A stretch of DNA of 64,000 nucleotides from a phage. The notes under the pieces were generated by a model. It worked only from the letters and a program-made list of their open reading frames with translations, had not been told where the DNA came from and did no database searches. The stretch lies in sequence record PQ478073.1. One strand, given 5' to 3'. The position numbers and the translations under genes were made by a program. Shown piece by piece: positions 12,793 through 17,242 of the stretch (its first letter is position 1; each line of letters begins with the position of its first letter).

Positions 12793-12870
12793 TAATCTTT
12801 TCCATTGTCCATTGCAATGCTTTCTTTACAGAAGAATAAATGAAACACTTAATTGAACTGGATACATAAA

Positions 12871-13047
12871 ATGACACATGAAGAATGGATAGAGTCACTA
12901 AAATATAAACATGATCATTTTGGATTTGGTATACGCCAAGGCCATTATGATGTTTTGAACGATAAAAAAACGTTCGAATCATTGGTTTTGGACGAAGATT
13001 CCAACCACTGGTTCATCTACGAGCTTGCTATTAGAGATAAAAAATAG
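12871..13047 (+). CDS. MTHEEW-family mini-protein
   Basis: paralog; track ORF starts at TTG 12853, ATG 12871 matches family N-terminus. Confidence 0.55.
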   Translation: MTHEEWIESLKYKHDHFGFGIRQGHYDVLNDKKTFESLVLDEDSNHWFIYELAIRDKK

Positions 13048-13588: not shown

Positions 13589-13807
13589 ATGAAAACAACT
13601 TTATTTGAAGTTATTCAATCATTAAAACCTGAAGATGAGGTTCAAGTACTACTACATGGTTATCGTGTAAAAGGTACTGTGGTTTTAGTCAATGATACAA
13701 CATTGGTTATTACAGAAACAAACCCATATGATAGTAATCAACTTGCCAATATCCATATCGATATCACTGGAATTATTGGTGTCGGTGTATCTAAAACACT
13801 TGCATAA
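13589..13807 (+). CDS. hypothetical protein
   Basis: start moved to ATG 13589 (MKTTLF), SD AAGGAA. Confidence 0.45.
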   Translation: MKTTLFEVIQSLKPEDEVQVLLHGYRVKGTVVLVNDTTLVITETNPYDSNQLANIHIDITGIIGVGVSKTLA

Positions 13808-14150: not shown

Positions 14151-14266
<116 letters not shown>

Positions 14267-14270
14267 AAAT

Positions 14271-14372
<102 letters not shown>

Positions 14373-14713: not shown

Positions 14714-15126
<413 letters not shown>

Positions 15127-15193
15127 CTAAATAATTCAGTACTGAGGATATTAATATGTTTAAAGATGAACGTCCAGATTTGTAAAAAGTACT

Positions 15194-15221
15194 TGACTAA
15201 ATAGTTTAGTACTGATATAAT
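15194..15221 (+). promoter_or_regulatory. promoter cassette TTGACT-N16-TATAAT with CAGTACTG-like box
   Basis: copy of 14714 cassette; followed by ~360 nt lacking a convincing ORF. Confidence 0.55.
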
Positions 15222-15585
15222 GAATTCCACAATCAGACGTATATGGTGTAAGTTACGTCGATGCAATCCAGAACAAGATCTCTGGTACTCTAGGAAGTGG
15301 TGAATGTTAACCTAGACGGGTTTGATAATTGGACGATAGGCAATTATTACTTGACTAGCAGGTTGAAACTAGAGGTGACAGTCCTTCACCAAACTGGAAA
15401 ACCGGATGGACTTTTATTTAAAAGGGTAAGGCGTGGAAATATGTTTACAGAAGTTGCTTTTAGTAGCCTGTACGCCCCACGTCAAGGTAGCCGAAAGGCA
15501 AGTTAAAACGGATGGTTATAAAGCTGAATTAACAGCGGCGTTTAAAAGCGTCACCATCCATTTTTTTTTAATTAAAGTTGGTGAT

Positions 15586-15964
<379 letters not shown>

Positions 15965-16000: not shown

Positions 16001-16237
<237 letters not shown>

Positions 16238-16310: not shown

Positions 16311-16835
<525 letters not shown>

Positions 16836-16857: not shown

Positions 16858-17242
<385 letters not shown>

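Follow-up and report, generated by a model that had tools for sequence, protein, structure and literature searches.

An ORF-poor segment in the tRNA region of a jumbo coliphage

The window, by which we mean the whole 64,000-nucleotide stretch of phage DNA that was analysed (PQ478073.1), derives from an Asteriusvirus-type jumbo coliphage of the 121Q/PBECO4 group, and its positions 15100-15700 share 95-99.5% identity with JP4, SP27, slurp01, PBECO4 and 121Q. The segment under study, 15222-15585, is flanked by tRNA genes (14177-14266 and 16001-16090), all of which lie on the + strand. It is preceded by a promoter, its GC content (0.39-0.43 over 15200-15500) is raised relative to the flanks (0.25-0.32), and the nearest downstream ATG with a Shine-Dalgarno sequence is that at 15586. 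These features, along with two hairpins (GGTGACAGTCCTTCACC at 15374-15390 and GGTAGCCGAAAGGCAAG at 15486-15502) and an ORF with a GTG start, had been listed in an original prediction made from the letters of the window, and all of them were recovered where it had placed them. That prediction proposed a single small RNA for the segment. Strong covariation of a + strand RNA bears out the RNA reading, but in place of one molecule we found two independent RNA genes, here termed modules A and B. In GenBank records the region is either blank or called as hypothetical proteins, and these annotations should be corrected. The principal elements of the locus are the following:

15193..15221, + strand: sigma-70 promoter cassette (TTGACT, 17 nt, TATAAT with a TG extension; 11/12 matches)
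15193-15198, + strand: -35 element of the promoter cassette before module A
15214-15221, + strand: extended -10 element of the same cassette
15222..15412, + strand: module A, a predicted structured small RNA (218 bits with covariance model R1; single copy in the window)
15297..15506, + strand: 69-aa ORF with a GTG start, considered spurious; the GTG forms the 3' strand of the pseudoknot PK0 of module A
15412..15423, + strand: A/U-rich linker between the modules
15424..15569, + strand: module B, a predicted second small RNA of ~145 nt, with a promoter of its own in relatives

When single-sequence folding was compared with shuffles, the z-score was -2.6 both for the segment in full and for module B, and -1.3 for module A; given such modest values the folding energy alone is not convincing. 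The decisive data are comparative, in the form of conservation that is restricted to the segment and of compensatory base changes. Thus, the alignment to the Klebsiella jumbo phages K64-1 and RaK2 (81%) covers exactly 15224-15572 and excludes the flanking genes. In both of these phages, and in the contig L015, an insert of ~40 nt with a promoter of its own (TTGAAC-17-TATAAT) parts module A from module B. Other isolates are without one or both of the two: JNE01 lacks module A, with the promoter cassette sitting directly before module B, EJP2 has only module A, fused 16 nt upstream of a tRNA-Ser, and in phAPEC6 the promoter remains together with a 37-nt stub of module A, which is joined to the downstream gene. 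Blastn gives a similar picture for G17 and Sharanji, where the match to module A is confined to its first 37 nt. Given that isolates in nature have A alone, B alone or neither of them, the modules behave as separate and dispensable genes, and presence or absence within one genus (121Q-type phages, EJP2, JNE01 and phAPEC6) offers ready isogenic-like comparisons. From these alignments it is very probable that the segment encodes two independent non-coding RNAs on the + strand. Module A is an undescribed RNA and the representative of a new family. RNA-level selection on the + strand, the modularity and the lack of coding capacity are likewise shown by the comparisons among homologues.

The promoter cassette, which spans ~43 nt, occurs in six copies in the tRNA region, at 13791, 14705, 15114, 15184, 15957 and 16849, and identical or near-identical copies lie 6-10 nt upstream of the tRNA-Ser genes at 16001 and 16897. 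Since the -10 element ends 6 nt before the 5' end of the tRNA-Ser at 16001, near-leaderless tRNA transcripts are implied. From the promoter position, transcription of module A is predicted to start at ~15228, which would trim one base pair of PK0 in the window phage. Host RNA polymerase would transcribe both RNAs from this strong early-type cassette, and the neighbouring tRNA genes would be driven by a cassette of the same type.

Fold and covariation of module A

The structural core of module A spans 15227-15411 (~185 nt). Twenty sequences, 19 of them distinct, were aligned, and the covariance model R1 of 191 positions was built, after which its matches were realigned. The structure, comprising 54 pairs, was derived from inspection by eye, RNAalifold and a compatibility scan over all columns; minimum free energy folds of single sequences were not used, as they differ from the structure supported by covariation. 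Over the 19 distinct sequences 91.8% of the cells are paired, as against 26-40% in slid controls, and 28 pairs show changes on both sides (6-8 in slid controls), with a covariation score of 0.396 (0.06-0.08 in slid controls). It should be noted that these values rest on about four deep lineages and small variants of them, and hence on a limited number of independent events. The original prediction had suggested a check of structure conservation in related phages, and across the homologues the pairing of module A is indeed kept by covariation. The alignment supports six hairpins, a weak P7 and three pseudoknots, laid out as follows in the window:

15227-15230 with 15297-15300, + strand: PK0, in which the 5' tail CCAC pairs with GUGG in the P3 loop
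15232..15262, + strand: P1 hairpin, with the conserved loop G-G/A-Y-G-U; 7/9 pairs change on both sides
15268..15285, + strand: P2 hairpin, variable and peripheral; the alignment is imperfect here
15289..15316, + strand: P3 hairpin, whose loop receives the 5' tail; 100% paired, 5/6 pairs change on both sides
15324..15348, + strand: P4 hairpin, with the conserved loop GACGAUA; 5/8 pairs change on both sides
15349-15353 with 15359-15363, + strand: P5a, forming an H-type pseudoknot with P5b; 100% paired, 2 pairs change on both sides
15355-15358 with 15369-15372, + strand: P5b, forming an H-type pseudoknot with P5a; 100% paired, 2 pairs change on both sides
15374-15390, + strand: P6 hairpin, the first of the two hairpins listed in the original prediction; loop GUCC at 15381-15384
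15394-15405, + strand: P7, weak and poorly kept outside the closest group
15381-15384 with 15408-15411, + strand: PK3, in which the P6 loop GUCC pairs with the 3' tail GGAC; 100% paired

The two terminal pseudoknots illustrate the nature of the evidence. In PK0 the variable pair is C-G in 11 sequences and G-C in 6, and in KP13-16 a by-eye reading finds CCUC and GAGG, whose pairing would require a 2-nt shift of the register. One pair of PK3 is GC in 11 sequences, AU in 5 and GU in 1, another is UA in 12, CG in 6 and UG in 1, and the loop and tail accordingly appear as GUCC/GGAC, ACCC/GGGU, GCCC/GGGC, AUCC/GGAU and UCCC/GGGA. This pairing with the 3' tail fixes the 3' boundary of the module. With both the 5' and the 3' end buried in pseudoknots, the fold fits a stable RNA resistant to nucleases. 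The strand is likewise fixed as + by conserved G-U pairs; for example, U-G is kept at columns 137/147 in 18 of the 19 sequences. The core also carries invariant unpaired nucleotides, and the periphery is more plastic: in SdyM006, Proteus phage 1 and ZPAH1, shorter hairpins take the place of P2. Two further proposals, both assessed by eye on the alignment, found no conservation, namely a stem closing the 5' to the 3' end, and CsrA-type GGA motifs or anti-Shine-Dalgarno complementarity across lineages.

We also observed that, in every sequence, the strand 15369-15372 can pair completely either with its P5b partner, 15355-15358, or with 15394-15396. The latter pairing would extend P6 and excludes P5b, and in one lineage all three partners of these exclusive helices have changed together. 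Two conserved helices that are mutually exclusive in this manner could represent a conformational switch or a base triple.

Distribution of the modules and organization of module B

Five phage groups that are otherwise unrelated carry module A, with identities of 70-92%. In blastn searches the first half of the segment (15222-15410) matched T4-like Bragavirus phages of Proteus, Morganella and Shigella and a T5-like Proteus phage at 85-92%, with weaker matches to T4-like phages of Aeromonas and to the rV5-like Klebsiella phage KP13-16. The copies that were delineated come from the Bragavirus phages PM2, SdyM006 and Mm5, the Aeromonas Emmerichvirinae, the T5-like Novosibvirus, KP13-16 and metagenome contigs, of which one pattern scan contributed five. 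No copy appeared when the same kind of scan was applied to 185,579 species genomes of bacteria and archaea, blastn returned no match in E. coli genomes, and scans of IMG/VR for module A, as well as one for module B, recovered known isolates only.

In the T4-like, T5-like and rV5-like phages module A fills an unannotated gap in a tRNA cluster, and in every copy its orientation matches that of the tRNAs. It lies between tRNA-Gly and tRNA-Asp in PM2 and SdyM006, between a CDS and tRNA-Glu in Mm5, between tRNA-Leu and tRNA-Ser in Proteus phage 1 and KP13-16, and between tRNA-Pro and tRNA-Thr in the Aeromonas phages. Its start falls 1-3 nt past the encoded CCA of the upstream tRNA in four phage groups, and its end is 5-9 nt ahead of the next tRNA in Mm5, PM2 and SdyM006, with a longer downstream gap in Proteus phage 1, KP13-16 and the Aeromonas phages. 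In the jumbo phages (the window, K64-1 and the metagenome contig L014) it is a promoter, and not a tRNA, that precedes the module. An all-against-all blastp comparison of the ORFs within 2.5 kb at 12 loci detected no protein neighbour conserved across lineages, and the sole cross-lineage matches adjoining module A were spurious ORFs overlapping it. This pattern of occurrence, as established by the comparison of genomes, shows horizontal spread of module A among unrelated phages through tRNA islands; it has passed among jumbo, T4-like, T5-like and rV5-like phages that infect Enterobacterales and Aeromonas.

Certain copies have additional elements in their vicinity. The Aeromonas phages carry a conserved extension of ~85 nt between module A and tRNA-Thr (3081-3169 of L003 and 1689-1775 of L011), with a hairpin and a TATAAT-like box. 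On the minus strand of L014, a second promoter and ~250 nt of ORF-poor sequence (560-812) follow module A before the next tRNA, and this stretch may encode another small RNA with no relation to module B. In SdyM006 a segD-like endonuclease gene (L002 2335-2940) adjoins the copy.

The second half of the segment has a narrower distribution, as its blastn matches are to jumbo phages only, with the addition of a 54-nt piece in Kuravirus podophages. From 5' to 3', module B comprises hairpin 1, a GAAA hairpin, an A-rich single strand, a two-hairpin domain closed by a stem, and a U-run:

15430-15483, + strand: hairpin 1, shared with Kuravirus
15490-15499, + strand: hairpin with a GAAA loop
15510-15516 with 15553-15559, + strand: 7-bp stem closing the two-hairpin 3' domain
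15561-15569, + strand: run of nine U (T in the DNA)

The consensus fold has 37 pairs and varies little among the jumbo phages, where sequence diversity is low and 2 pairs show compensatory changes. Comparison of hairpin 1 with the Kuravirus phages XT32 and 1-6af shows 3 compensatory pairs, with 97% of the cells paired as against 27-43% when slid. A promoter lies directly upstream of module B in JNE01, K64-1, RaK2 and L015, and its 3' end, where the stem is followed by the U-run, resembles an intrinsic terminator, the U-run being weaker in K64-1. The evidence that module B is an RNA gene, which comes from these alignments, is good, though thinner than that for module A.

Module B is like the trans-acting sRNAs that end in a terminator: it measures ~145 nt, has its own promoter, and consists of a structured domain at the 5' end, a single strand rich in A and U, and a hairpin with a U-run at the 3' end. 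It differs from them in that its terminal stem encloses an unusually large two-hairpin domain. Further, hairpin 1 is conserved in the way expected of a protein- or ligand-binding module, unlike an sRNA seed.

Related sequences were noted elsewhere. In XT32 hairpin 1 is one of several conserved modules in a 640-nt ORF-free region (L005 1230-1870), which gave no match in a Rfam search; another of these modules (~1637-1712) is common to Gamaleyavirus and Klebsiella phages and is at times annotated as tRNA-Cys or tRNA-OTHER. Blastn found two places for module B in each Klebsiella phage record, and in K64-1 a stretch just upstream of module A (L004 2960-2998) is similar to the 3' domain of module B, a domain that also finds a 75% match in EJP2, ~3.6 kb upstream.

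Relation to known RNAs and candidate functions

A scan against Rfam, as suggested by the original prediction, did not assign 15222-15585 to any family: with Rfam 15 only tRNAs reach the gathering score in the window, nothing credible appears on the segment at E <= 10, and module A of five divergent homologues gave no match either. Small RNAs in the tRNA region of T4 have been recognised since the 1970s, and the original prediction had drawn an analogy with them. The analogy holds for position, as module A is, like T4 RNAC and RNAD, a small non-coding RNA that is located in a phage tRNA cluster, is co-oriented with it and abuts tRNA genes. It does not extend to homology: the T4 RNAs have lengths of 119-139 nt, with a T-arm like that of a tRNA at the end of rnaC, unlike module A with its 185 nt, three pseudoknots and no tRNA-like arm; similarity in sequence or structure is absent, the R1 model has no match at E <= 1 in the 68.5-74.5 kb region of T4 that includes rnaC and rnaD, and no T4 record was returned by blastn searches with the segment. 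The role of RNAC (species 1) and RNAD (species 2) is still unknown (PMC3014915). Module A, whose fold of 185 nt is pinned by covariation, is a better-constrained small phage RNA than these precedents.

The complex structured phage RNAs GOLLD and ROOL, whose functions are unknown, are also often found near tRNA genes. They are three to four times larger than module A, belong to phages of other host phyla, and are present in Rfam, where they gave no match here. Structures of these RNAs are available (bioRxiv 10.1101/2024.12.08.627333). Among jumbo phages, PA5oct, which has been placed with 121Q/PBECO4/RaK2, has ORF-free, highly transcribed ncRNAs of unknown function that were defined by RNA-seq (PMC7318152). 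The present segment resembles them as a non-coding region of a jumbo phage; the PA5oct ncRNAs differ in being located in the terminal repeat and not in a tRNA cluster, come without a structure model, and are not homologous, as their loci have no match to R1.

Our best guess for the function, which we hold with low confidence, is a stable RNA that works in trans as a decoy or sponge. Taken together, the claim that the segment contains two RNA genes with a binding or sequestering role in trans appears reasonably probable; its functional part, according to which both RNAs would be abundant and nuclease-resistant and would bind or sequester a host or phage factor, is a tentative proposal inferred from their architecture. 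Such a factor could be a small ligand, or a protein involved in tRNA metabolism or in defence, and modules A and B would then be accessory genes for host takeover or anti-defence, like the tRNAs around them. Where module A exactly fills the space between two tRNAs, the nucleases that process tRNAs would also set it free, and in the jumbo phages it would be transcribed from a promoter of its own. Module B would be an RNA of ~145 nt that ends 3' in a hairpin and U-run and that, in relatives, is preceded by its own promoter. If module A is an anti-defence decoy, a sponge or a ribozyme, phage tRNA islands would rank as vehicles for functional RNAs beyond tRNAs.

A more doubtful extension of this proposal sees in module A a self-contained RNA machine that is swapped via tRNA islands and acts as a high-copy aptamer or decoy for a defence protein or signalling nucleotide, as a new ribozyme, or as a self-assembling RNA. 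The exclusive conserved helices, which hint at a switch or a catalytic cycle and not at a passive decoy, would be the working switch of such a machine. A self-assembling form would require that the end-to-loop pseudoknots form between molecules, and covariation is blind to the distinction between intra- and intermolecular pairing.

That module A is specifically a ribozyme, for instance a self-cleaving or processing RNA that helps to mature the adjacent tRNAs, is unlikely. Its start immediately past the CCA of the upstream tRNA in four phage groups, its multi-pseudoknot core with invariant unpaired nucleotides, and the conformational change suggested by the exclusive helices would all suit such an activity. 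However, the module is equally conserved where a promoter and no tRNA precedes it (the window, K64-1 and L014), the flanking tRNAs encode their CCA, and E. coli possesses a full tRNA processing machinery. No Rfam ribozyme family was hit at E <= 10, and the HDV family in particular gave no match on the segment or on the five divergent homologues. There is a precedent in the HDV-like theta ribozymes, which adjoin phage tRNAs and whose presumed target is the 3' trailer of the tRNA; these are minimal nested double pseudoknots of Bacteroidota and Bacillota phages, and their tRNAs mostly lack an encoded CCA (PMC10879173). Module A shares with them its pseudoknotted nature and its place beside phage tRNA genes, but is about three times larger, is associated with CCA-bearing tRNAs, has promoter-driven copies, and differs in host range and topology. 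We did not find in it the HDV-type arrangement of P1, P1.1, P2, P3 and P4 with a cleavage site at the 5' end of P1; instead the 5' tail pairs with the P3 loop, P5a and P5b form an H-type pseudoknot, the P6 loop pairs with the 3' tail, and two full hairpins lie between the strands of PK0.

It is also decidedly unlikely that the segment, and especially module B, is a cis-acting leader or attenuator controlling read-through into the gene at 15586. The hairpin and U-run do end 17 nt ahead of that start codon with no intervening promoter, and the order in JNE01 is promoter, module B and gene. Against this, K64-1 has a different downstream gene, with the alignment ending at 15572, phAPEC6 has a homologue of the downstream gene without module A or B, and hairpin 1 of Kuravirus lies in the 640-nt ORF-free region. 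What comes after module A also differs from phage to phage (a tRNA, a promoter, module B or unrelated ORFs), an arrangement that does not correspond to a riboswitch or leader.

An element acting at the DNA level (a homing-endonuclease target or cargo boundary, a recombination site or a replication signal) or a decayed tRNA remnant would accord with the mobility between unrelated phages, with the endonuclease genes nearby (the HNH ORF at 16311-16835 and the segD-like gene beside the SdyM006 copy) and with the spacing of P5b and P6, which in a by-eye reading of the alignment recalls the tRNA D and anticodon arms. Such explanations are highly improbable in view of the compensatory changes that keep the pairing, the conserved G-U pairs that work only as + strand RNA, and the orientation, which always follows the tRNAs. 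A tRNA-like P5b/P6 was rejected, as the supposed D-loop is itself paired in P5a with covariation and the supposed anticodon positions covary with the 3' tail; moreover, neither ARAGORN nor the Rfam tRNA model calls a cloverleaf on 15222-15585 or its homologues. Finally, a 69-aa protein encoded by the ORF 15297-15506, doubted already in the original prediction, has hardly any chance of being real and is effectively refuted by the alignments: the ORF exists and similar ORFs remain in the closest relatives and Proteus phage 1, but it is broken by stops or frameshifts in most homologues (K64-1, RaK2, PM2, Pm5461, Mm5, L014, L017 and all those of Aeromonas phages), its substitutions are even over the codon positions (131-148 each) with no third-position bias, it spans two modules that are found apart from each other, and its GTG start has no Shine-Dalgarno sequence.

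The surrounding tRNA region has further features of note. Right after the tRNA-Ser at 14177-14266, the stretch 14271-14349 gives a tRNA-like match exactly at the Rfam threshold (29.3 bits) with no call by ARAGORN, and may be a degenerate or unusual tRNA. The tRNA-Ser called by ARAGORN at 16897-16988, preceded by a promoter cassette, has the unusual anticodon ACT. The ORF at 16311-16835, inside the tRNA cluster, encodes 174 aa, whose translation reads as having putative HNH/homing-endonuclease-like features. Between 12800 and 14560 the repeat families D2 and D3 mark paralogous small ORFs starting with MTHEEWM (at ~13390, 14378 and 14539), which are interleaved with the tRNAs, and a further copy of the repeat lies at 12849-12890.
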